56,477 nt of DNA from Tabrizicola sp. (GTDB taxonomy: Bacteria > Pseudomonadota > Alphaproteobacteria > Rhodobacterales > Rhodobacteraceae), in assembly GCA_012032275.1 (NCBI GenBank), contig JAAURK010000001.1, forward strand, positions 1 through 56,477, in the 5' to 3' direction. The notes under the pieces are model-generated. The model saw only the letters and a program-made list of their open reading frames with translations. It was not told the DNA's origin and made no database searches. Positions 16,532 to 28,997 of the stretch are shown piece after piece; within the stretch, counting starts at the first letter, position 1; the number at the start of each line of letters is the position of its first letter. The position numbers and the translations under genes were made by a program.

Positions 16532-17305
16532 TCAGAGATGGAAGGAAAAGCGCGGCGTGTTGCCGCTGCGGTCGATGCGGGCCCGCACGTTGAAGGCCTG
16601 GGCAAGGGTGGCCTCGGTCAAGGCCTTGTCCGGCGGGCCGTCGGCGAGGATGCGGCCGTCCCTCAGGATCAGCACCCGTTCGGCGAACTCGGCCGCCAGC
16701 GTCAGGTCGTGCAGCGTGGCGATGACCGTCAGGCCAAGGCCTTTGAGCAACGCCAGCAGTTCGAGCTGGTGGCGGATATCAAGGTGATTGGTCGGCTCAT
16801 CCAGCACGATGACGCGCGGCTCCTGCGCCAGCGCCCGGGCGACCATCACGCGTTGGCGTTCCCCGCCCGAGAGCGTGCCGAAGGCTCGGTCCGCCATGGC
16901 CTCCAGATCCATGCGCCGGATCGCGGCATGGATGATTGCGGCATCCTCGCCGCCCGGTGTGGACAGACCAGCCCCCCATCCCTTGCGATGCGGCAGACGG
17001 CCAAGCGCCACGATCTGCCGCGCGGTCAGGGCAAAGTCGGTCGGCTGCTCCTGCAGCACGGCGGCCAGATGGCGCGCGGCCTCGGGCGCACCCATCAGCC
17101 AGATATCCTTGCCCATCAGCCTGATCGTGCCCCGGCGCGGGGCCTGATGTCGGTAGATCAGCCGCAACAGCGAGGATTTCCCCGCCCCGTTCGCCCCGCA
17201 GATCGCCATGACCTGCCCCTGTGGCACGGCAAAGCTGAGGTCCGACAGGATGTCGCCCTGCCCTCGCGGGCCCCATGAAACGCCGTCCAACTCCACGACA
17301 TTCAT
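16532..17305 (-). CDS. ABC transporter ATP-binding protein
   Basis: Walker A GANGAGKSS, signature LSGGERQRV, Walker B VIVLDEPT. Confidence 0.9.
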   Translation of the reverse strand: MNVVELDGVSWGPRGQGDILSDLSFAVPQGQVMAICGANGAGKSSLLRLIYRHQAPRRGTIRLMGKDIWLMGAPEAARHLAAVLQEQPTDFALTARQIVALGRLPHRKGWGAGLSTPGGEDAAIIHAAIRRMDLEAMADRAFGTLSGGERQRVMVARALAQEPRVIVLDEPTNHLDIRHQLELLALLKGLGLTVIATLHDLTLAAEFAERVLILRDGRILADGPPDKALTEATLAQAFNVRARIDRSGNTPRFSFHL

Positions 17306-17769
17306 TGAAGGACACCCTCACGGGTGACGATCATCGCCGCCGGGATGCGGGCGAGCGTGTTATCGCACAGCCGCGGCGGGCAGTCGCGCCCCGACAGCCA
17401 GCCATCCTCGACCGCCGCGTAAAGCCGCGAGAATTCTACAAGGTCGTCAATGGGTTGCGCCGGGTCGATGTCACCAAAAAGCCAGGTCGCCTTGGCCGTG
17501 GCGCGCCAGCCGACAACGCAAGCCCCGCCATGAGCGGGCACGCAGCCCGCAAGGCATGCCGTGCCCGAAACTTCGAACTCCACGTCAAGACCCGCCGCCT
17601 GAATGGCCGCGCGCAGCTTTTTCAAGAGCGCATGGCCCGGCGCGCAGGCCTCGCCCTTGTGCTTGCAGGCCTTGCAGACCAGAATCTGATGCGGCGCAGA
17701 TTGCGCCACCGAATAGGCGGGCGTGGCCACAGGCCGCGCGGCAGGGGGCCGCCCCTTGCGTTCAACCAT
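17302..17769 (-). CDS. DUF1636-type metal-binding (thioredoxin-like ferredoxin fold) protein
   Basis: Start MVERKG at 17769, preceded by GGAAGGAG. Contains CKACKHKGEAC and other Cys clusters. ATGA overlap with the ATPase gene. Confidence 0.7.
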   Translation of the reverse strand: MVERKGRPPAARPVATPAYSVAQSAPHQILVCKACKHKGEACAPGHALLKKLRAAIQAAGLDVEFEVSGTACLAGCVPAHGGACVVGWRATAKATWLFGDIDPAQPIDDLVEFSRLYAAVEDGWLSGRDCPPRLCDNTLARIPAAMIVTREGVLQ

Positions 17770-17794
17770 CGCATGCTCCTTCCGGGACACCCCG

Positions 17795-18100: not shown

Positions 18101-18117
18101 CACGTTATATTATAACA
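18101..18117. promoter_or_regulatory. Zur-box-like palindrome ACGTTATATTATAACAT
   Basis: A 6-1-6 palindrome GTTATA-T-TATAAC in GC-rich DNA, 14 nt upstream of a COG0523 start. Identical to the 27848-27864 site except for the central base. Confidence 0.6.
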
Positions 18118-18131
18118 TCACGCAGGATGCC

Positions 18132-19346
18132 ATGCCCCAGACCGCACAAGATACCCGCCTGCCCGTCACTGTCCTGTCCGGCTTTCTCGGCGCCGGGAAA
18201 ACCACGCTTCTGAACCATGTCCTGAACAACCGCGACGGCCGCCGCGTGGCTGTCATCGTCAATGACATGTCCGAGGTGAACATCGACGCCGACCTGATCC
18301 GAGAAGGCGCCGAGCTGTCGCGATCGGAGGAAAAACTCGTCGAGATGACGAACGGCTGCATCTGCTGCACGCTGCGCGACGATCTTCTGTCCGAGGTCCG
18401 TCGTCTTGCCGCAGAGGGGCGCTTTGACTACCTGCTGATCGAATCCACCGGCATTGCCGAACCGCTGCCAGTGGCCGCGACCTTCGACTTCCGCGACGAG
18501 GCGGGCGAAAGCCTGTCGGATGTGGCGCGGCTGGATACGATGGTGACGGTCGTGGATGCGGTGAACCTGCTGCGGGATTTCTCCAGCCACGACTTCCTTG
18601 CCGACCGGGGCGAGAGCCTGGGGGAGGCGGACAACCGCAGCCTGGTGACCCTGCTGACCGAACAGATGGAATTCGCCGATGTGATCTTGCTGAACAAGGT
18701 CGCCGACGCCAGCCCTTCGCAGGTCGATGCCGCCCGCAAGATCATCCGCGCGCTGAACCCCGATGCGCGCGTGATCGAAACCAGCCACAGCCGCGTCGAT
18801 CCCGATGCGATCTTCGACACCGGGCTCTTCGATTTCGACACCGCGCATGAACATCCGATGTGGGCCAAAGAGCTTTACGGCTTTGCCAACCACACGCCCG
18901 AGACCGAGGAGTACGGCATCACCTCCTTCGTCTACCACGCCCGCGAGCCCTTTCATCCGGCCAAGATCCATACCGTCCTGAACGGCGATTTGCCCGGCGT
19001 GATCCGAGCCAAGGGCCATTTCTGGATCGCCACGCGGCCCGATTGGGTGGCCGAGTTCTCTCTCGCCGGGGCCATGTCCTCGGTCACGCCGCTGGGGCGC
19101 TGGTGGGCCTCGGTTCCGCCGGACCGGCTGCCCAAGCACCCCGATGCACAGGCAGAAATCGCCCGGAACTGGGCCGAGCCCTGGGGCGACCGGCGGCAGG
19201 AAATCGTCTTCATCGGTGCGGGGTTTGACCGTGAAGCGATCTCGGCCGCGCTGAACGCTGCGCTGGTCACAAGCTGCGACTTCACCCCGCAAGCCTGGAC
19301 AAGGTTGCCCGATCCCTTCCCGGTCTGGGGGCAGAAGGCTGCGTGA
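18132..19346 (+). CDS. COG0523 family GTPase (ZigA/YeiR-type zinc metallochaperone)
   Basis: [13 protein letters not shown]-loop, [11 protein letters not shown]xCC motif, and a long C-terminal domain. Confidence 0.9.
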
Positions 19347-20113: not shown

Positions 20114-20488
20114 TCACAGGTCCTTGGGTGCAAATACGCAGAGCTTGTTGCCGTCGGGGTCGCGCACATAGGCCACATAGTGGGTCCCCTCACGTAGGCC
20201 CGGCTGCCCCTCGTCCGTCCCACCCTGAGCCAAGGCCGCAGCATGAAAGGCATCGACCGATGCGTGGCCGCGCGTCTCGAACGCGAGCATCGCGCCATTG
20301 CCGAAAGTGGCCTTGGCCTTGTCGAATGGCGTTGTGAGGCAAAGCTTAGGCCGTTCCCCTTCGCGTCCATAACGGGTCCATTCCGGACTTGTCTCTTCGC
20401 GCCGACCACCGATGGCGCCGAGGACAAGGTCGTAGAAGGCAATGGCGCGGTTCATGTCGTTCGTTCCAAGGGTCGCATAAGCGATCAT
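20114..20488 (-). CDS. VOC/glyoxalase family protein
   Basis: The conserved part starts MIAYATLGTNDMNRAIAFYD; 124 aa. Confidence 0.75.
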   Translation of the reverse strand: MIAYATLGTNDMNRAIAFYDLVLGAIGGRREETSPEWTRYGREGERPKLCLTTPFDKAKATFGNGAMLAFETRGHASVDAFHAAALAQGGTDEGQPGLREGTHYVAYVRDPDGNKLCVFAPKDL

Positions 20489-20709
20489 GTTCGGCAGCCT
20501 TTCGGAGAATGGGTTATGCCTTCTTTGCTTCGCGACCTGATGTGCACCAGTACCAAGTGACGCCTTCTGTGCTTTCCCCTTCGGCAAAGAAAGGCAATCC
20601 AGAACTCGACCTTGCTTGCCAAAGTCACGCCCTCTCGCAATCTCCGCCATTTTGGGTCGCGTGAAAGCCTGCGGCACCGTGACAGCCCTTGCTTTGCAAG
20701 AAACAGGCA

Positions 20710-21039
20710 TCAGGAGCGAATTGTATTCAGGTCAACCCGCATGGGCAATGAGCCAAGGGTTGCGGCGATCCGATCCGCCACGGCAGCCGGACCGGCGTCG
20801 ATGATGATCCGCGCCTGTCCCACGCGGGTCACAGCCTGGATCAGGCGCAAGCGCGGGTGCGCGGCGGGAAGGCAACAGGTGCAGCCCGGCCCCATCAGCC
20901 AGTCGAGCGGCGAGGTGGGCGGGTCGGCGGCCTCGGCGAAGATCGTTACAGGCCGGCGAGAGGTGCGGATCAGTTGCGCGATCCGGGCGCTGCGACCTGC
21001 GGCGCTGTCGCCTTCGACGAAGTGGACGTAAGTCCTCAC
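20710..21039 (-). CDS. 109-aa mini COG0523-like protein (degenerate P-loop, CxCC retained)
   Basis: GDSAAGRS aligns to [13 protein letters not shown] to GCICC, and IIIDAGP to ILIETTG. The CxCC-to-Walker-B spacing (26 aa) is the same as in the neighbouring full-length COG0523. Confidence 0.5.
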   Translation of the reverse strand: MRTYVHFVEGDSAAGRSARIAQLIRTSRRPVTIFAEAADPPTSPLDWLMGPGCTCCLPAAHPRLRLIQAVTRVGQARIIIDAGPAAVADRIAATLGSLPMRVDLNTIRS

Positions 21040-21308
21040 CGCGCGGGTACCTGCGGGCGGAGGAGGACCACATCGGCCTCGGTCACCGCCGCCACTGCCG
21101 ATGGGAAGCGCAGCACAAAGCGGCGGCGGTCGGCCAGGGTGACGGTGACCACCGTTTCCAGATCGGGGCAGCCAGGTTCATGGCAAGCCAGTTCGGCCAC
21201 CGCGATGTGGTCCTTGTCACTCAGCGTCATCAGATCGGCGACCCATGCCTTCAGCTGGGAAACCGCCTCGGCATCCGGGCGGGGGCGGCGGTTGAAGAGG
21301 CCCAGCAT
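21036..21308 (-). CDS. 90-aa hypothetical protein with a CHEPGCP motif
   Basis: MLGLFNRRPRPDAEAV...ELACHEPGCPDLE. The start overlaps the WD40 stop (TGATG) and the stop overlaps the next start (ATGA). Confidence 0.45.
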   Translation of the reverse strand: MLGLFNRRPRPDAEAVSQLKAWVADLMTLSDKDHIAVAELACHEPGCPDLETVVTVTLADRRRFVLRFPSAVAAVTEADVVLLRPQVPAR

Positions 21309-22335
21309 CAGCCCGCCCCCAATGGTGCCCAAAGGACGCCGCCTTGTTCATCGGCCGCCAAGAGCCAGCCGGTAAGTGGCGTCACCGCCAGCAGGGTTAC
21401 CGGCGCACCGGACGGGCGTTTGACCGCGCGGGGTTCGGCGATCTGGTCGATCTCGGAGAAGATCACCGCGCCCGAGGAATAGCCCGCCAGCACCGCCTCA
21501 TGCCCCGGCAGGCGCAGATCGCGGTGACATAGCCGCGCCCGCCCCAGGCCACTTGCATCGGGCCGCGACCCATCGGGCCTTGCGCCCCGTCAAAGGGCCA
21601 CAGTATCGCCTCATCCGCGCCGGTGGTCGCAAGCCAGGGTAGTTTCCCAGCCCAAGCCCAGCCCTTGACCTTGGTCGGATAGCCCGACATCCGCAGATCG
21701 GCCTTGTCGCGCAGCCGCCAGCCGTGCAGGGCATTTTCCTGCATGCGGCTCATGACAAAACGATCATCGGGGCTGAAGCTGACAGCGGTGTGGCTGCCCG
21801 CCCATTTGAGGGCCGTGGGTTTCCAGCCGCGCTTTTCCCGCGCCCAGATCGTGACACCGCCGTAATGCGCCACCGCCAGCCGCCCGCCCTTTCGGTCAAA
21901 GGCCAACCCGCCCACGGTGGAGGGGGCTGCAAGCCGTTCTTGCCTGGCGCCGTCCCAGAGAAACACCTCACGCCCGACAGAACAGGCAAAGACCCCGCCC
22001 GCGCCCGCCGCGACATGGTCGACCCATTTGCGGGGGTGGCTGGCGATCTCGGTCACGCCCTCGGGACCGACGCGGCAAAAGCGGCCATCGTCGCCGCCCG
22101 TCAGGAACGTCCCGGACGATTCCGCCACCATTGACAGGATCGCGCCCTTGTGGACGGGCAAGGCCTCATGTTCCGCGCCGGGGCGGAAGACGCGCACATG
22201 CCCGTCGCCCCATGCGGTAAAGGCGGTGTCACCCACCGTCGCCACCGCCACGGGCACAGCATCAAAGTCATACTTGCGCCCGCCCTTCTCAATACGGGTG
22301 GGCGCAAGCGGATCGGGCCGCTCCAAGACCGGCAT
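21308..22335 (-). CDS. Cytoplasmic WD40/beta-propeller repeat protein, frame broken near 21517-21526
   Basis: Repeated GDGHVRVF, GGDDGRF and LHGWRL type blades, with no signal peptide. ORF 21463..22335 continues as RDLRLPGHEAVLAGYSSGAVIF in ORF 21308..21493. Confidence 0.75.
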
Positions 22336-23297
22336 CAGGCGGCCTTGCAGGCGGCAAAGCCGTCGGCCAGCCCCATCTTGTACAGATCGCGCCCGATGAA
22401 GACGAGTTTCGAGGATCGGGCCTTGCCTGCGGGCCAGGGACCAAGGGGCGAGCCATCGGTCAGCATGTGGACGGCGTGGACGACGAACCGCTCCTCCTGG
22501 CCGGCGAAGTCGAGGATGCCCTTCGACCGCAGGATATCCTGCCCGCGCTCACGCAAGAGCTTGCCAAACCAGGTCTGGAACTTGCGTTCATCCAGCGGCG
22601 TGTCGGAGGAGAGGGAGACCGAGGTGATGTCCTCCTCATGCGTATGCTCGTGAGTTTCATCGAGGAAATCCGGCTCGATCTCCAGCACGCGTTCCAGGCT
22701 GAAGGCATCCAGCCCCAGCACCTGATCCAGCGCCACGCCGCATTTCTCGGTCTTGACGATCTTGGCGTAGGGGTTGATCGACTTGATCCGCGCCTCGGCG
22801 GTGGCCAAGGCGGCGGCATCCACCAGATCGACCTTGTTCAGAAGGATGATGTCGGCAAAGGCGATCTGCTCGGCCGCCTCATGCGCCTCGTCCAGATGGG
22901 TGGACAGGTTTACCGCATCGACCACCGTCACGATGGCATCCAGCCGCGTCTTTTCGGCCACGTCCTGATCGACATAGAAGGTCTGCGCAACAGGGGCGGG
23001 GTCGGCCATGCCGGTCGTTTCGATCAGGATGCCGTCGAAATCCTTGCGCTTCATCAGCCCGGCCAGAATGCGGATCAGATCGCCCCTGACGGTGCAGCAG
23101 ATGCAGCCGTTGTTCATCTCGAAGATCTCTTCGTCGGCGTCGATCACCAACTCGTTGTCGATCCCGGTCTCGCCGAATTCGTTGATGATGACGGCGTATT
23201 TCTTGCCATGCGGCTCGGTCAGGATGCGGTTTAGAAGCGTGGTTTTCCCGGCGCCAAGAAAGCCGGTCAGCACGGTCACGGGGGTTTGGATGGTCAT
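22335..23297 (-). CDS. COG0523 family GTPase (CobW/YjiA-like, His-rich linker)
   Basis: [23 protein letters not shown], and linker DETHEHTHEED. Confidence 0.9.
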   Translation of the reverse strand: MTIQTPVTVLTGFLGAGKTTLLNRILTEPHGKKYAVIINEFGETGIDNELVIDADEEIFEMNNGCICCTVRGDLIRILAGLMKRKDFDGILIETTGMADPAPVAQTFYVDQDVAEKTRLDAIVTVVDAVNLSTHLDEAHEAAEQIAFADIILLNKVDLVDAAALATAEARIKSINPYAKIVKTEKCGVALDQVLGLDAFSLERVLEIEPDFLDETHEHTHEEDITSVSLSSDTPLDERKFQTWFGKLLRERGQDILRSKGILDFAGQEERFVVHAVHMLTDGSPLGPWPAGKARSSKLVFIGRDLYKMGLADGFAACKAA

Positions 23298-23300
23298 GGG

Positions 23301-24221
23301 TCAGGTCTCCTGCAAGGGGGGGAAGCGCTCGGGCCAGAGCAGTGATTGATGCGAGGCAGTGCCAGTCACGACGCCATCGGACAGCGCTGGCGTCAGGATG
23401 CCGGCGGGGCGGGTGACGTCCCCGGCAGCAAAGAGGCCCGCGCGGCTGGTGGTGTTGAAAGCACCGACCTTAAGGTAAAGGCCGGTCGGCCCCTGTGCGG
23501 TGGCCAGGCCAAGACCGGCCACGAAAGGGGCCGCAAAACTGGTGTCGGCATGGAGGAACAGGCCTGCAGTGTGCAGGCTGGTGCCATCGGCCAGGGTCAG
23601 GCGCGCGCCATCTGTAAGCGACTGAGCATGGGTCAGGGGGGAGCGCAGCAGTGTCACGCCAAGCGCCGCCGCTTCGGCCTCTGCCTCGGGGCCAAGATCA
23701 CCCTCATGCGCGATCAGCGTCACATCGTCCGACCAGTCGCTGCGCAGCATCTTTGCCATATGCAGCGCCATCGGCCCGCGCCCAAGGATGGCCAATGGTT
23801 GCCCCTTGATCTCATAGCCGTGGCAATAGGGGCAGTGCAGCGCCCATTTGCCCCAGCCTTCGGCCAGCCCCGGAATGACGGGCAGATGGTCCATCATGCC
23901 ACAGGCCAGGATCACCCGGCGTGCCGTGACCTCGCCCCCCGCCGTGGTCAGGCGAAAGGCATCGGCCTGCCCGGTCAGGCCGGTCACCGCCTGATCGTGG
24001 AAAGTGACCGTGGGATAGGCCGCCGCATCCTTGCGGATCGCCGCAAGGATCACGCCCGGCGCGGTGCCATCCCACCCTGGAACGCCATGCGCCGCCGGAG
24101 AGGCCGCGTTGCGCGGGCGGCCGGTGTCAAAGACACCGACCGTCCGGCTGGCGCGGCCCAGTTGCAGCGCCGCCGTCAGTCCGGCAAAGCTGCCGCCGAC
24201 GATGGCGACATCATAGGTCAC
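23301..24221 (-). CDS. FAD-dependent pyridine-nucleotide disulfide oxidoreductase (thioredoxin-reductase-like)
   Basis: DVAIVGGSFAG dinucleotide fold, HCPYCHG redox motif, GDV near the C-terminus. ATGA overlap with the znuA stop. Confidence 0.85.
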   Translation of the reverse strand: MTYDVAIVGGSFAGLTAALQLGRASRTVGVFDTGRPRNAASPAAHGVPGWDGTAPGVILAAIRKDAAAYPTVTFHDQAVTGLTGQADAFRLTTAGGEVTARRVILACGMMDHLPVIPGLAEGWGKWALHCPYCHGYEIKGQPLAILGRGPMALHMAKMLRSDWSDDVTLIAHEGDLGPEAEAEAAALGVTLLRSPLTHAQSLTDGARLTLADGTSLHTAGLFLHADTSFAAPFVAGLGLATAQGPTGLYLKVGAFNTTSRAGLFAAGDVTRPAGILTPALSDGVVTGTASHQSLLWPERFPPLQET

Positions 24222-25251
24222 TGTGCCAGTGCCCCGGTCAGTTGCCCCAGATTGTAGCGCATCATGGTAAGGTAGGTGCCCGCCGGACCATCCGCCGCCG
24301 ACAGCGCATCGGAATAAAGCGTGCCGCCGATCTTGGCCCCCGTCTCGGCCGCGATCTGGTCAAGCAGGCGGCGGTCAGCGATGTTTTCGACAAAGACCGC
24401 CGAAATGCCCGCCTCCCTGATCTGGGTGATGAGGGCGGCCACGTCCTGTGCCGATGCCTCGGCCTCGGTCGAGACACCCTGCGGGGCGACGAAGGTCAGG
24501 CCATAGGCGGCGGCGAAGTAGCCGAAGGCGTCATGCGAGGTCACAACGGTGCGGCGGTTTTCCGGCAGGGCGGCGACGGCGGCGCGAATCTCGGCATCCA
24601 GCGTGTCCAACTCGGCCAGATAGGCGGCAGCGTTGGCCTTGTAGACCTCGGCACCCTCTGGATCGGCGGCGGCAAGACCGCGTTCGATGTTGCCGACATA
24701 AAGCGCCACATTGGTCACGCTTTGCCAAGCATGCGGGTCTCGGCCCCGTGGTCGTGGCCTTCGTGGTCATGGTCGTGGCCAGCTTCCTCTGCGGCATGAT
24801 CGTGGCCGGCCTCTTCCTTGGCATGGTCGTGCGCCTCGCCCTCGGCATGTTCGTGGTCATGGTCATGGTCGTGCGCCTCGCCTTCGGCGTGGTCGTGCTC
24901 TTCTTCACCAAAGGCGATGGGCGTCACGCCTTCGGACGCGTTGATGAGCATGGCCTTGGTGCCCGATGCCTCGACCAGCCGGTCCATCCAGCCTTCGAAC
25001 CCCAGCCCGTTGGCGACGATCACCTGCGCCCCCGCAACCGCCTGCGCATCGGCGGGAGAGGGTTGGAAGACATGGGCGTCGCCATCAGGGCCGACCAGCG
25101 TGGTCACCTCGACCCGGTCACCGCCGACATTTTCAACGATGTCGCCAAGGATCGAGAAGGTGGCGATGACATTCAGCTTGTCCTGCGCAAAGGCTGGGGC
25201 GGCGAAGGCCAATGCTGCGGCAGAGGCGAGGAGGAGGCGGCGGGTTATCAT
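24218..25251 (-). CDS. znuA: Zinc ABC transporter substrate-binding protein ZnuA, frame broken near 24738-24748
   Basis: Signal peptide, then a very long His/Asp/Glu loop (EEEHDHAEGEAHDHDHDHEHAEGEAHDH...). After restoring one base it continues DPHAWQSVTNVALYVGNIE in ORF 24218..24718. Confidence 0.85.
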
Positions 25252-25263
25252 CGGGGTGTCCTT

Positions 25264-26127
25264 TCAGGCTTCAAGATGGGCGCGGGGCCAATAGCGGGCG
25301 GCAAGGCTGCCCGAGGGACCGAACGCGAGGGAGAGGAGGTAAAGGGTTCCGGCAGCCAGGATGATGGCCGGGCCAGACGGCAACCCTGCGTGGAACGAGG
25401 CAAGCAGCCCCGCGACAGAGGACGCGGCGGCGATGGCAGCGGCAACCGCCAGCATTCCACCGATGGAATTGGCCCAGAACCGGGCGGCGGCGGCGGGCAG
25501 GATCATGATCCCGACCGCCATCAGCGTCCCAAGCGCCTGAAACCCCGCGACAAGGTTCAGGACGACAAGGCCGAGAAACAGGAAATGCACCGGCCCGCTC
25601 CACCGGCTGACCGAGGCGAGGAACCGCGGATCGGCACATTCCAGCACCAGCGGGCGAAAGATCAGCGCCAGCGTGACCAGCGTGAAGGTGGTGATCGCGC
25701 AGAGCAGCGTCAACGCGGCATCGTCGAGCGCAAGGACCGTGCCGAAAAGGACATGCATCAGGTCCACGTTCGACCCCTTGAGCGAGACCAGAAGCACGCC
25801 CAGGGCCAGCGAGATCAGGTAAAAGGCGGCCAGCGACGCATCCTCGCGCAAGCTGGTGAACCGTGCGACGGCCCCGGTCAGCACAGCCACGACCAGCCCC
25901 GCCATCACCCCGCCAAGGGTCATCGCGCCAAGGTTCAGCCCGGCGACGAGATAGCCCACCGCCGCCCCCGGCAGGATCGCATGGGCCATGGCATCGCCCG
26001 TCAGGCTCATCCGGCGCAACAGCAGGAACACCCCCACCGGCGTGGCCCCCAGCGAGATCGCAAGGCAGCCCAGAAGTGCGCGTTGCATGAAAGCGAAGTC
26101 GGCGAAGGGATCGACCAGCCAGCTCAT
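25264..26127 (-). CDS. znuB: Zinc ABC transporter permease ZnuB
   Basis: 287 aa, ABC-3 family polytopic protein. ATGA overlap with the znuC stop. Confidence 0.9.
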   Translation of the reverse strand: MSWLVDPFADFAFMQRALLGCLAISLGATPVGVFLLLRRMSLTGDAMAHAILPGAAVGYLVAGLNLGAMTLGGVMAGLVVAVLTGAVARFTSLREDASLAAFYLISLALGVLLVSLKGSNVDLMHVLFGTVLALDDAALTLLCAITTFTLVTLALIFRPLVLECADPRFLASVSRWSGPVHFLFLGLVVLNLVAGFQALGTLMAVGIMILPAAAARFWANSIGGMLAVAAAIAAASSVAGLLASFHAGLPSGPAIILAAGTLYLLSLAFGPSGSLAARYWPRAHLEA

Positions 26128-26852
26128 GCGGCACCCCGCGCGCAGAGATTGGCACTGTCGTCGAAGGCCTCGGACATCTGGCGGGCGCGGAACAGGTTTT
26201 CCGCGGTCAGGACCGTGTCGGTCGCCCCATGCGCCACCTTTTCCCGCGCCAGCAGCAAGGTCTCGGGGAAGTGACGGCGGACCGCCTCCATGTCATGCAG
26301 CACGGCCAGCACGGTGCGCCCTTCGCCATGCCAGCGCTGCACGACCGCCAGAAGGTCGGCGGCGGTCTTGGTATCCAGCGCGGTGAAGGGCTCATCCAGC
26401 AGGATCAACTCGGCGTCCTGCAACAAGAGCCGCGCGAACATCACGCGCTGCATCTGGCCCCCGGACAGGGCCGAGATCGGGCGGCGGTCAAACCCGGTCA
26501 GGCCCACGGCGGCCAGCGCCTCGCCCACCCGCATGGCATCCTTGCCCCGGACCCGGCCAAAGGCACCCACGCGGTGCCACAGGCCCATCGCGACAAAGGC
26601 CCCGACGGCAAGCGGAAAGCTGCGGTCCACCTCGGAGAGTTGCGGCAGATAGGCCAGCCGCGCCGCGCCCCGGTCGATCCGGCCCTCCAAGGGGGGAAGC
26701 TCCCCGGTCAACCCCTTCAGCAGCGTGGATTTCCCCGCGCCGTTCGGGCCGACAATGGCGGTCAGGCTGCCCGTCGCAAGGTCAAGGTCAAGGTGATGGA
26801 CCGCAGGATGGCGGTCATAGCCCAGCGTCAGGTCACGGATGCGCAGCGCCAT
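26124..26852 (-). CDS. znuC: Zinc ABC transporter ATPase ZnuC
   Basis: Start MALRIRDLTLGYD, Walker A GPNGAGKSTLLK, signature LSGGQMQRV. Confidence 0.9.
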   Translation of the reverse strand: MALRIRDLTLGYDRHPAVHHLDLDLATGSLTAIVGPNGAGKSTLLKGLTGELPPLEGRIDRGAARLAYLPQLSEVDRSFPLAVGAFVAMGLWHRVGAFGRVRGKDAMRVGEALAAVGLTGFDRRPISALSGGQMQRVMFARLLLQDAELILLDEPFTALDTKTAADLLAVVQRWHGEGRTVLAVLHDMEAVRRHFPETLLLAREKVAHGATDTVLTAENLFRARQMSEAFDDSANLCARGAA

Positions 26853-26853
26853 A

Positions 26854-26952
26854 TCAGCCCACCACCAGCCAGAGGCCGACCCAAAGTGCTGCGGACAGAC
26901 CAAGCGCCAGCGCCAACCGCAGGGCTGCCCCGGACAAAAGCAAGTCCTTCAT
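26854..26952 (-). CDS. 32-aa hydrophobic micro-ORF between zur and znuC (putative)
   Basis: Hand translation gives MKDLLLSGAALRLALALGLSAALWVGLWLVVG*. The ATG overlaps the zur stop (ATGA) and the stop lies 1 nt before the znuC ATG. Confidence 0.3.
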   Translation of the reverse strand: MKDLLLSGAALRLALALGLSAALWVGLWLVVG

Positions 26953-27335
26953 GCCTTGTCCCCCGCGCAATCACCACAGCGGCCGTGCACCTCGATCGTC
27001 TGCCGCGCCTCGGCGAACCCTTCGGCGGCAAGGCGCTGGTGCAGGCTTTCGAACAGGCTTGGTGCCTCGACGCTGCGCACGGTGCCGCAATCGTCACAGA
27101 TCGCGACCACGCCCGGCGCGGGTGAAGTGACCGCCGCCCAGGCCCGCAGCGTGGCGATGCGCTGCACGACGCCTGCCTCCTCCAGCCCCTTCAACGCGCC
27201 GGAAACCGTGGGTGGGGCGACCGCACCCCCGTCGCGCTGCATCCGGCCCAACAGTTGATAGGCGGTCATCGGCCCATTCGCCCCGCGCAACAGGGCCAGC
27301 ACTTCGGTCTCATTTCGCGTCAACGCTTCGCCCAT
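26949..27335 (-). CDS. zur: Fur-family zinc uptake regulator Zur
   Basis: MGEALTRNETEVLALLRG... winged helix, plus CDDCG and CGDC metal sites. Adjacent to znuCBA. Confidence 0.8.
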   Translation of the reverse strand: MGEALTRNETEVLALLRGANGPMTAYQLLGRMQRDGGAVAPPTVSGALKGLEEAGVVQRIATLRAWAAVTSPAPGVVAICDDCGTVRSVEAPSLFESLHQRLAAEGFAEARQTIEVHGRCGDCAGDKA

Positions 27336-27342
27336 GGCACCC

Positions 27343-27813
27343 TCACAGGATCGTCGGGTTCGGCGCATCGCCATAGACGGCGATGGGGTCGAAGCGGCGC
27401 TCGGTCTCGGTGAACCGCAGCGGGGAACCTGCCGCCGAGCCGAAAGGCACCTCACGGTAAAAGCACGACCGATAGCCGACATGGCAGGACGCGCCCGACC
27501 CAGCGACCGTAACCTGCAGCCACAGCGCATCCTGATCGTCGTCGATCCGCATCCTGACCACCGACTGCGTCAGGCCCGAGGTCGCGCCCTTGTGCCACAC
27601 GGCCCTACGGGTGCGGCTGAAGTAATGCGCCTCGCCCGTCTGAATGGTCAGCCGCAGCGCCTCAGGGTTCATCCAACCCAGCATCAGCACCGTGCCGTCC
27701 GCGGCATCGGTCGTCACGCAGGGCATCAGCCCATCCGCCGCAAAGCGCGGGGCAAGGGCCGCGCCTTCCTCAACCTCAAGGACAGACAGGCGGGGGCCGA
27801 AGGTGACGGTCAT
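27343..27813 (-). CDS. hisI: Phosphoribosyl-AMP cyclohydrolase HisI paralog
   Basis: [38 protein letters not shown]. First gene after the Zur box. Confidence 0.85.
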
Positions 27814-27847: not shown

Positions 27848-27864
27848 ACGTTATAGTATAACAT
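27848..27864. promoter_or_regulatory. Zur-box-like palindrome ACGTTATAGTATAACAT in a divergent promoter region
   Basis: GTTATA-G-TATAAC. Lies 34 nt upstream of the hisI start (minus strand) and 11 nt upstream of the COG0523 start (plus strand). Confidence 0.6.
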
Positions 27865-27875
27865 AGCACAAGCTG

Positions 27876-28997
27876 ATGATGTCCCGTATCCCCCTGACCC
27901 TGATCACCGGCTATCTTGGTGCCGGAAAGACAACGCTTCTCAATGCGCTGCTGCGCGATGCCTGGGCGGGCCGCATCGCCGTCGTCGTCAACGAGTTTGG
28001 CGATGTGGGCCTTGACCACGACCTGATCGTCGAGACGACCGAGGAAACGGTCCTTCTCTCCTCTGGCTGCATGTGCTGCACGGTGCGGGGCGATCTGGTG
28101 CAGGCGCTGGAAGGCCTCTTCGAAAAGCGCAGCGCTGGGAAGCTGGACTTCGACCGCATCGTGATCGAGACAACTGGCCTCGCCGATCCGGCGCCGATCC
28201 TGCACACGCTGATCGTGACGCCCGGCCTTGGCGCGGCGCTGCGGATGGATGGGGTGGTCACGGTCTGCGATGCAGTGAACGGCCCTGCCACACTGGATGC
28301 CGGGTTCGAAAGCGTTCAGCAGGTGGCGATGGCGGATGTGCTGGTGCTGTCCAAGACCGACCTCGTGACGCCATCGCAGGCCGAACGTTTCCGGGCGCGG
28401 TTGGCAGCGCTTGCCCCCGGCGCGCGGAATGTAACCGCAACACGCGGGGCCGTGCCCGTTGCCGAACTCTTCGGCCATGGTGCCCCCGACATGAACGGCG
28501 CGTTGCCCGAAGCCGAGGCTTGGGTGAACGCCCCGGCCTACGCGCTATCGTCCTTGCCAATCCCGCCTCTCGCCAAACCACTGGCGCCCTTGGCCACCGG
28601 CCCAACCCATGGCCTCTTCGGGTTGGCCCCGACCCCGGGGTCAAGCCTGATGGCCGCCATCGCCCCGGCGACCCGGCACGACGACCGCATCTCCTCGGTC
28701 TCGATGGTCTTCGACGAGCCAATCCACCCGATGATGCTCGATATCTGGATGGAAACCTTGATCGTCGCCCGCGGTCCCGACATCCTGCGCCTGAAGGCGG
28801 TGATCTGGGCCGACGGCTTCGACACGCCCTTAGTCATCCACGGCGTTCAGCACATCGTTGACCCGCCCGTTCGCCTGGCGCGCTGGACGGGCGAGGATCG
28901 CAGAAGCCGCGTCGTCATCATCGGACGCGATCTCCCGCGCGAGGCATTGCTGGACAGCCTTGAGGTATTGAAGACGCGGCCGTTGGTGCACGGCTGA
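27876..28997 (+). CDS. COG0523 family GTPase (third copy)
   Basis: [23 protein letters not shown], and a Pro/Ala-rich linker before the C-terminal domain. Confidence 0.9.
   Translation: MMSRIPLTLITGYLGAGKTTLLNALLRDAWAGRIAVVVNEFGDVGLDHDLIVETTEETVLLSSGCMCCTVRGDLVQALEGLFEKRSAGKLDFDRIVIETTGLADPAPILHTLIVTPGLGAALRMDGVVTVCDAVNGPATLDAGFESVQQVAMADVLVLSKTDLVTPSQAERFRARLAALAPGARNVTATRGAVPVAELFGHGAPDMNGALPEAEAWVNAPAYALSSLPIPPLAKPLAPLATGPTHGLFGLAPTPGSSLMAAIAPATRHDDRISSVSMVFDEPIHPMMLDIWMETLIVARGPDILRLKAVIWADGFDTPLVIHGVQHIVDPPVRLARWTGEDRRSRVVIIGRDLPREALLDSLEVLKTRPLVHG

Follow-up and report, generated by a model that had tools for sequence, protein, structure and literature searches.

Nickel maturation by UreG-UreF-UreD-UreE and by HypB-HypA depends on a G3E GTPase bearing a cysteine metal site, together with scaffolds and a small metal-binding partner, and the metal is passed on between half sites. 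ZNG1, reportedly described by Weiss et al. and by Pasquini et al. in 2022, is said to be a eukaryotic zinc metallochaperone of the COG0523 family that has METAP1 as its client. The COG0523 family was connected with Zur 15 years ago, and to our knowledge, most of its bacterial zinc chaperones still have no known partner or client. In the searched text of Haas et al. (2009, PMC2770081), prokaryotic COG0523 genes of subfamily 5, to which most of the eukaryotic COG0523 proteins also belong, are reported to cluster with WD40-repeat genes and znuABC, several of them behind Zur sites, and that of Barnett et al. (2012, PMC3323870) reports that COG0523 and WD-40 genes are paired, with strong conservation, in marine cyanobacteria and calls the significance of the pairing unclear; the function of the WD40 partner is left open in both texts. 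Here, we analyzed a stretch of 56,477 nucleotides (nt) from Tabrizicola sp. (assembly GCA_012032275.1, contig JAAURK010000001.1, positions 1 to 56,477; hereafter the window), in which a COG0523 gene is followed by three genes encoding a WD40 beta-propeller, a 90-amino acid (aa) protein with a two-cysteine hairpin (p90), and a 109-aa protein with a CxCC motif (mini109). A previous interpretation of this DNA, referred to below as the sequence-only reading, could name no described system of this composition, but the pairing of COG0523 with WD40 in a znuABC and Zur context is the one described in the texts cited above. The WD40 association is already known, and the well-supported new element is p90 as a near-obligate companion of the COG0523–WD40 pair.

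A scan of metagenomes with the p90 profile gave 80 loci (numbered with an L where they are named below), in which the identity of p90 goes down to ~34%. A WD40 orthologue was located directly upstream of p90 in 62 of the 63 testable metagenome loci, a COG0523 gene of the ~320-aa type was present upstream of WD40–p90 in 38 of 40, and an upstream zur/znu gene or Zur-box-like palindrome was found in ~35 of 39. Nine genome loci have the order zur, znuCBA, (flavoprotein), COG0523, WD40, p90, and mini109. Furthermore, seven sampled WD40 or p90 homologues led to eight loci, in all of which COG0523 overlaps the WD40 start and in several of which Fur/ZnuABC, DUF1826, or cysS and hisI paralogues are close by. 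mini109 of the 109-aa clade follows p90 in 14 of 74 loci, and a second clade, mini-B, does so in 13 more, resulting in 27 of 74 for both clades. Taken together, the conserved unit is COG0523–WD40–p90, and mini109 is a narrow-clade add-on. The sequence-only reading had treated WD40, p90, and mini109 as a unit, to be checked by its co-conservation with COG0523 and Zur in gene neighborhoods; this was borne out for the COG0523–WD40–p90 core, which extends far beyond the clade, but not for mini109, which also persists in one locus (L003) that has no COG0523, WD40, or p90.

In the window, the four genes belong to a co-directional run of ten genes on the minus strand, which is laid out, together with the palindrome at its head, as follows.

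27850..27862, no strand: Zur-box-like palindrome GTTATAGTATAAC, located in the divergent promoter that the hisI-like/zur operon shares with the 373-aa COG0523 paralogue.
27343..27813, minus strand: hisI-like gene (phosphoribosyl-AMP cyclohydrolase paralogue), the first of the run; open reading frame (ORF) whose syntenic gene in Neotabrizicola shimadae (L101) matches PF01502 PRA-CH.
26949..27335, minus strand: zur (Fur-family regulator), with the start inferred at 'MGEALTRNE'; the syntenic genes of L101 and L100 match PF01475 FUR.
26124..26903, minus strand: znuC; syntenic genes match Pfam ABC_tran.
25264..26127, minus strand: znuB; syntenic genes match Pfam ABC-3.
24218..25251, minus strand: znuA, split by a 1-nt deletion near 24743; syntenic genes match Pfam ZnuA.
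23301..24221, minus strand: thioredoxin reductase (TrxR)-like FAD/NAD(P) flavoprotein with a CPYC motif, in a variable slot of the operon.
22335..23297, minus strand: COG0523 GTPase of 320 aa, of YjiA-like length and with the motif ILIETTG; matches Pfam cobW and CobW_C.
21308..22335, minus strand: WD40 beta-propeller gene, 342 aa if intact, here frameshifted to ORFs of 290 and 61 aa.
21036..21308, minus strand: p90, 90 aa, with the CHEPGC hairpin (C42/C47) and without a Pfam, NCBIfam, or PDB match.
20710..21039, minus strand: mini109, CxCC mini-protein of 109 aa, starting at the GTG of its GTGA overlap with the p90 stop.

The COG0523 stop overlaps the WD40 ATG as TGATG, as does the WD40 stop with the p90 ATG, and the p90 stop overlaps the GTG start of mini109 as GTGA. 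The three overlapped ORFs that had been noticed after a full-length COG0523 are real, with the first two junctions as proposed and the third being GTGA, not ATGA. From znuC onward, the junctions of the listed ORFs are overlaps or gaps of ≤12 nt, the widest gap being that of 45 nt between zur and znuC, and the count of terminator-like signals within the run is at chance level. The palindrome GTTATAnTATAAC has only two exact copies in the window, compared with 0.02 expected by chance. One of them (27850–27862) heads the ten-gene run, 5.5–7 kb upstream of the tail genes, and the other (18104–18116) precedes a ZigA-like COG0523 gene, which is followed by DUF1826. The palindrome of 27850–27862 recurs at the equivalent position in L002, L005, L007, and L009, and no second Zur box was found closer to WD40, p90, or mini109, with up to 2 mismatches allowed. 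As judged from the position of the palindrome at the head of the run, WD40, p90, and mini109 can fairly be read as the tail of a Zur-controlled zinc-starvation operon, in agreement with the Zur-operon context first assigned to them. A 198-aa ORF on the minus strand (20114–20710), which is joined to mini109 by TGATG at 20710, was considered as a fourth coupled gene and rejected; its VOC/glyoxalase domain covers only residues 76–198 and it is non-syntenic in most relatives, and it is probably a separate gene with its true start near 20485. A sigma-70-like site (20748–20720) was also observed by the junction of the mini109 stop and this VOC gene.

The p90 ORF (21036–21308) contains ACHEPGCPDLETV, confirming the 90-aa protein with a CHEPGCP motif that had been read from it. 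In the alignment, C42, C47, P48, E51, and T52 are invariant (C-x-E/D-P-G-C-P-x-x-E-T-V, a CxxxxC hairpin), and in the N-terminal peptide MLGLFxRRPxxD, conservation is complete at M1, L4, and D12 and nearly complete at G3, F5, and R7. The family comprises 119 clusters, being broader than that of mini109, and its ratio of nonsynonymous to synonymous substitution rates (dN/dS) is 0.09–0.22. The AlphaFold2 (AF2) model, with a mean predicted local distance difference test score (pLDDT) of 83.7, has the order alpha-beta-beta-beta-alpha and places the cysteines in the loop of the beta1–beta2 hairpin, and its first ten residues have a pLDDT of 53. Two cysteines on a single knuckle cannot fill a tetrahedral site, suggesting that metal would be ligated between proteins. 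In addition, as a conserved terminus modelled at low confidence is a typical signature of a docking peptide, the N-terminal peptide may be one that docks on the propeller, the adjacent protein and hence the obvious receptor. Nothing at or near cut-offs was found for p90 in Pfam, NCBIfam, or the PDB sequence profiles, and the fold search with the model gave neither a thioredoxin-like fold nor a significant match to a solved structure. The possibility that p90 is similar to hibernation-promoting factor (HPF) or a double-stranded RNA-binding domain (dsRBD), or is tied to the mycobacterial Mrf–Mpy hibernation system, was also considered and rejected, the fold-search matches concerned being weak (E of at least 0.047, template modelling [TM] score of at most 0.52).

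For the WD40 protein, the alignment indicated that GH-like and WD-like columns are conserved, giving the signature of a WD40-repeat propeller, which is probably seven-bladed. More than 2000 matches were obtained, with orthologues of 50–60% identity in Paracoccus, Tropicimonas, Paenirhodobacter, Rubrimonas, and Acuticoccus; intact orthologues have precomputed PF23381 and PF00400 matches and carry the source name 'WD40 repeat domain-containing protein'. In the window, one C is absent from a CCC run at ~21513 compared with three homologous loci, and the resultant frameshift leaves the ORFs 21463–22335 (290 aa) and 21308–21493 (61 aa), the former of which reached 26.3 bits on PF00400 (cut-off, 27). 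The gene is a single 342-aa frame in L001, L002, and L005–L009. The cytoplasmic protein of ~342 aa described in the sequence-only reading is, hence, that of the relatives, the one in the window being split, and no signal-peptide-like N-terminus could be read from its sequence. Because znuA (~24743) and DUF1826 (~19536) are likewise one base short relative to related loci, the three 1-nt deletions within 6 kb look like assembly errors, although part of the Zur regulon could instead have undergone real pseudogenisation.

The 320-aa COG0523 protein (22335–23297) matched Pfam cobW (7e-61) and CobW_C (2e-23), and its closest solved relative, over the full length, is E. coli YjiA (1NIJ, E = 3e-49). 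It was under every NCBIfam equivalog cut-off, with 211 bits for the YjiA type (cut-off, 361), 211 bits for ZigA (cut-off, 600), and 204 bits for CobW (cut-off, 332). From its gene context, with WD40 and znuABC, it appears to be of the kind that was placed, together with eukaryotic ZNG1, in subfamily 5 by Haas et al. It is one of three COG0523 paralogues inside 11 kb of the window. The paralogue at 18132–19346 (plus strand) is ZigA-like (590 bits; cut-off, 600) and precedes DUF1826, and that at 27876–28997 (plus strand, 373 aa) is divergent from the hisI-like/zur operon. The ZigA-like gene is adjoined by a DUF1636 gene (17302–17790, minus strand) and then, to ~14532, by genes for the ATPase, the periplasmic binding protein, and the permease of a FecCD/BtuF-type ABC transporter, an arrangement that is kept in L002, L005, L007, and L101.

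The mini109 family is very small: 20 clusters were obtained at 90% identity, and when 1.84 billion proteins were searched exhaustively with HMMER, 9 real representatives were left at 50% identity. The named sources of the family are Rhodobacter- and Tabrizicola-type organisms; a Calx-beta repeat protein (P0267) in the HMMER search was rejected as a repeat-driven false positive. The 109-aa clade has 22 invariant columns, including E9, G10, R16, D46, W47, C53, C56, H61, and D81, and its motif is GC[TAVSLN]CC, with C55 conserved at ≥90%. Mini-B, with 132–138 aa ('WLTLPCCLCCMAPTDPRLILLRA'), is located at the equivalent position in its 13 loci and was matched to the 109-aa clade by hhalign with a probability of 95.7% (E = 1e-8) at an identity of only ~30%. 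All three CxCC cysteines are kept in mini-B, and His61 is replaced by Asp, which is consistent with a metal ligand there.

As for the relationship to COG0523, the sequence-only reading had aligned mini109 with the core of the COG0523 G-domain. The distance from GCTCC to IIIDAGP in mini109 is 26 residues and is equal, as had been stated, to that from GCICC to ILIETTG in the neighboring COG0523, whereas the P-loop-like segment and CxCC are 42 residues apart in mini109 and 52 in COG0523. The CxCC metal-binding motif is present in both clades. At the place of Walker A (GxxxxGK[ST]), mini109 has the consensus 'VEGDSAAxRxARI', with only E9, G10, and R16 invariant, and mini-B has 'LLVQDLSEIP'; at that of Walker B/switch II (hhhhE(S/T/C)TG in the family), mini109 has, with the 26-residue spacing from GCxCC, a hydrophobic strand and then an acidic residue (R-I-L-I-D-A-G), as DxG compared with ExxG of the family. 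Since mini109 is without GK[ST] and ends at residue 109, before NKxD and CobW_C could appear, it is, by its motifs, not a GTPase, and the idea of a GTPase-dead protein that keeps an invariant CxCC has held.

The AF2 model of mini109 (pLDDT 79.6) is a small sandwich in the order beta-alpha-beta-(CxCC loop)-alpha-beta-alpha-beta, and most of its top 50 Foldseek matches in the PDB are P-loop kinases or NTPases, with weak scores (E of at least 0.057, TM 0.4–0.55). The hhalign comparison of the merged mini profile with 23 COG0523 sequences reproduced the register proposed earlier, with a probability of 64% and P = 6.4e-5 (columns 5–82 against 7–94), and mini-B alone was aligned collinearly from residue 1 to 112 (103 columns). 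The real score of 35.6 was reached by 0 of 150 column-shuffled nulls, which scored 12 ± 2 with a maximum of 19. Furthermore, the CxCC of mini-B is at residues 65–68, as is that of the ~320-aa COG0523, the opening 'PVPVTILLV' of mini-B can be compared with 'TPVTVLTG' of COG0523, and the last Cys is followed at +5 by an acidic or His residue in the mini and COG0523 families alike. Four COG0523 subfamily profiles gave one register (P of 7e-5 to 2e-3) and did not single out a parent paralogue for mini109. In L065, L068, L071, L072, L077, and L079, p90 is closely followed, on its own strand, by a full-length ZigA-like COG0523 gene, an arrangement that may plausibly represent the ancestral state for a truncated copy.

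The best explanation for these observations, which we hold tentatively, is that the tail of the Zur operon encodes a zinc-handling complex of COG0523, WD40, and p90, with mini109 as a later accessory derived from COG0523. The core would be a translationally coupled cytoplasmic module of the ~320-aa COG0523 zinc-chaperone GTPase, the WD40 propeller, and p90, which would form a stoichiometric complex with the propeller as a docking platform. p90 would bind to the propeller through its conserved N-terminal peptide and offer a two-cysteine 'half site' on its beta-hairpin, and a tetrahedral zinc site would be completed only with another protein, for which the CxCC of COG0523 would be the natural candidate. 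COG0523 would then use GTP hydrolysis to drive or gate the hand-off of zinc to clients. The gene order and overlaps, the co-conservation, the purifying selection, the predicted folds, and the conserved cysteine motifs of COG0523, p90, and mini109 are what the analysis showed. We infer the complex, the docking on the propeller, the exchange of zinc between partial thiolate sites and COG0523, and the gating by GTP by analogy with the G3E systems and ZNG1–METAP1, and the binding of zinc by p90 and mini109 and the direction of transfer are to be taken as parts of the same proposal. mini109 would be a clade-restricted small alpha/beta accessory that keeps CxCC with a His or Asp five residues later; it may go back to a COG0523 paralogue once situated downstream of p90, of which the N-terminal third has remained, and would probably act as an extra zinc-binding partner for hand-off or holding.

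Several results weigh against this explanation. p90 is absent after WD40 in some genomes, such as that of Paracoccus alkanivorans, and is, hence, not obligatory, and the conserved His residues of WD40 occupy the usual GH positions of WD repeats, giving no pointer to a metal site. With respect to mini109, shuffles that keep GCxCC scored 26.5 ± 2.5, and 1 of 150 reached the real 35.6; when CxCC was deleted from both alignments, no hhalign similarity was left. The exhaustive HMMER search with mini109 gave no COG0523, Pfam cobW was matched by 0 of 9 and 1 of 20 mini109 members, with the best E of 0.043 below the gathering score, and YjiA was not among the 50 Foldseek matches listed for mini109. 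In addition, several mini-B copies are disrupted, with a shared stop at a conserved Trp codon (~codon 59) in L037 and L040 and frameshifts or truncations in L049, L051, and L034/L035, and in L003, COG0523, WD40, and p90 are all missing between the flavoprotein and the mini gene that comes after it. The broken mini-B copies and the narrow range indicate that the mini gene is dispensable in many lineages.

A serious, though less probable, alternative is that mini109 is an unrelated orphan, the CxCC and spacing of which resemble those of COG0523 by convergence or chance and which binds a metal or an Fe-S cluster independently. This would account for the loss of the hhalign signal with the motif and for the outcome of the exhaustive HMMER search, and it is in keeping with the beta-alpha-beta fold being generic at the Foldseek E values obtained and with the PDB-profile matches to [NiFe]-hydrogenase small subunits, which were equally weak (E = 0.56–1.5). 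It is opposed by the collinear register, which covers 78 columns for the merged profile and 103 columns from residue 1 for mini-B, by the position of CxCC in mini-B and the residue at +5, by the single register from four separate subfamily profiles, and by the location of the gene within a COG0523 operon, at a place where other clades have a full-length paralogue. The likeness of mini109 residues 39–62 to the N-terminus of the O2-tolerant [NiFe]-hydrogenase small subunit ('WLHGLECTCC'; 'P-x-x-WL-x-G-x-x-C-T-C-C ... AHP') was judged to be a motif-level coincidence because of the different topological position of the motif, which we take to differ in the small subunit from that in mini109. The NCBIfam scan of mini109 gave nothing at or near cut-offs, the PDB sequence-profile searches gave no significant match, and BLASTP against the neighboring COG0523 gave only a 10-residue CxCC segment (E = 0.02). 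Thus, as CxCC carries most of the score, homology between mini109 and COG0523 is suggestive only, with the case for common descent being roughly evenly balanced. The initial observation of a mini COG0523 was, on the whole, of something real but partly mis-described: the alignment to the core is plausible and rests largely on one motif, and the fold search leans to P-loop NTPases only at the weak scores given above.

It is unlikely, though conceivable, that COG0523, WD40, and p90, with the mini-protein in some clades, constitute a multi-subunit zinc insertase like the maturation machines of urease and hydrogenase, in which the mini-protein would be a nucleotide-free 'half G-domain' that pairs with the G-domain of COG0523, at the face used for homodimers by G3E GTPases, to make an inter-protein, Cys-rich zinc site. 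If this were true, a holo-complex and its adaptor logic would be defined for the first time for a bacterial COG0523.

Another proposal, which we regard as quite unlikely, is that the tail is a thiol-redox module, in which CxxxxC of p90 and CxCC of mini109 would cycle between dithiol and disulfide and be reduced by the CPYC flavoprotein, keeping the cysteines of COG0523 reduced in zinc starvation. In both p90 and mini109, conserved cysteines lie close together, and the gene immediately before COG0523 encodes the TrxR-like flavoprotein in the window and several relatives. However, the slot of the flavoprotein is empty in L001, L002, L008, and L009, which keep WD40, p90, and mini109, and holds a DUF4198 gene instead in N. 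shimadae (L101), and the p90 model is without a thioredoxin-like fold. Being a variable insert, the flavoprotein makes a redox-centered model less likely.

Finally, mini109 is a real gene under purifying selection. Its dN/dS is 0.17–0.35 at dS of up to ~1.7, with differences concentrated at third codon positions, and its start position and overlap with the p90 stop are conserved. In N. shimadae (CP069370.1), which is cultured and has a complete genome, a homologue with a GTG start overlapping the p90 stop is present at L101:8270–8755, where no gene is called, and its ORF reads through to 161 aa. That mini109 is a functionless, decaying remnant of a truncated COG0523 paralogue, as might be thought from the few clusters (20 at 90% identity, ~9 at 50%), the variable C-terminal read-through extensions, the uncalled N. 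shimadae gene, the mini-B copies with nonsense mutations or frameshifts, and a constraint looser than that of p90, is very unlikely given this selection, the 22 invariant columns, the cysteine motif kept across two clades that are ~30% identical, the conserved start and overlap, and the retention of the gene in L003 after the loss of its neighbors.

Beside the module, an alpha/beta-hydrolase family ('LLPALSSISTREEM') was observed to recur in L058–L063, L013, L014, L012, and L096. In several loci, marine ones and those of Acuticoccus, it begins immediately at the p90 stop; it is located near the module on the opposite strand in Paracoccus alkanivorans, and is fused to a degenerate WD40 in one protein (P0158); it may be possible that this hydrolase is a client or a further accessory of the module. 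Two loci carry distant taxonomic labels, namely L001 (CP059262.1, an 'Exiguobacterium profundum' metagenome-assembled genome [MAG]) and L006 (a 'Burkholderiaceae' MAG), and have locus proteins that are 80–95% identical to those of the Rhodobacteraceae-type operon, and the Firmicute and betaproteobacterium labels are probably a result of mislabelling or mis-binning.

This study turns a vague adjacency of COG0523 and WD40 into a defined candidate module, with a propeller, a two-cysteine p90, and, in some lineages, a CxCC mini-protein, and brings out one, possibly two, protein families that have been missed by current annotation. The presence of the whole module in the cultured and fully sequenced N. 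shimadae makes it experimentally accessible.

Among the systems to which the COG0523–WD40–p90 module may be compared, the UreG and HypB nickel systems likewise have a G3E GTPase encoded with genes for a scaffold and a small cysteine-bearing partner. They differ from the module in that its accessory folds are a WD40 propeller, an alpha-beta-beta-beta-alpha fold, and a truncated G-domain-like fold, in that its metal would be zinc and not nickel, and in that no target enzyme is encoded in the cluster. ZNG1–METAP1 reportedly also involves a CxCC COG0523 GTPase under zinc limitation and the recognition of a partner through the docking of a short conserved peptide on a dedicated domain; in the module, p90 would supply such a peptide and the propeller such a domain, and the operon has neither a METAP1-type zinc finger nor a client. 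For E. coli yjiA, we know of no WD40, p90, or mini-protein partner genes, and compared with YjiA (PDB 1NIJ/4IXM), mini109 extends over no more than the first ~95 residues and is without GKT. AztD of Paracoccus denitrificans, a periplasmic or cell-surface beta-propeller zinc chaperone that delivers zinc to the solute-binding protein AztC, is a propeller from Fur/Zur-family zinc-homeostasis neighborhoods of Alphaproteobacteria as well (PMC6689063); unlike AztD, the propeller in this study is without a signal-peptide-like N-terminus, has WD-repeat signatures, and is coupled to a cytoplasmic GTPase. Closest to the module are the subfamily-5 clusters of Haas et al. and the cyanobacterial pairs. Although neither the p90 family nor a CxCC mini-protein is mentioned in the searched text of PMC2770081 and PMC3323870, the module shares with the clusters and pairs reported there a COG0523 gene that is followed at once by WD40, by zur/znuABC and behind predicted Zur sites.

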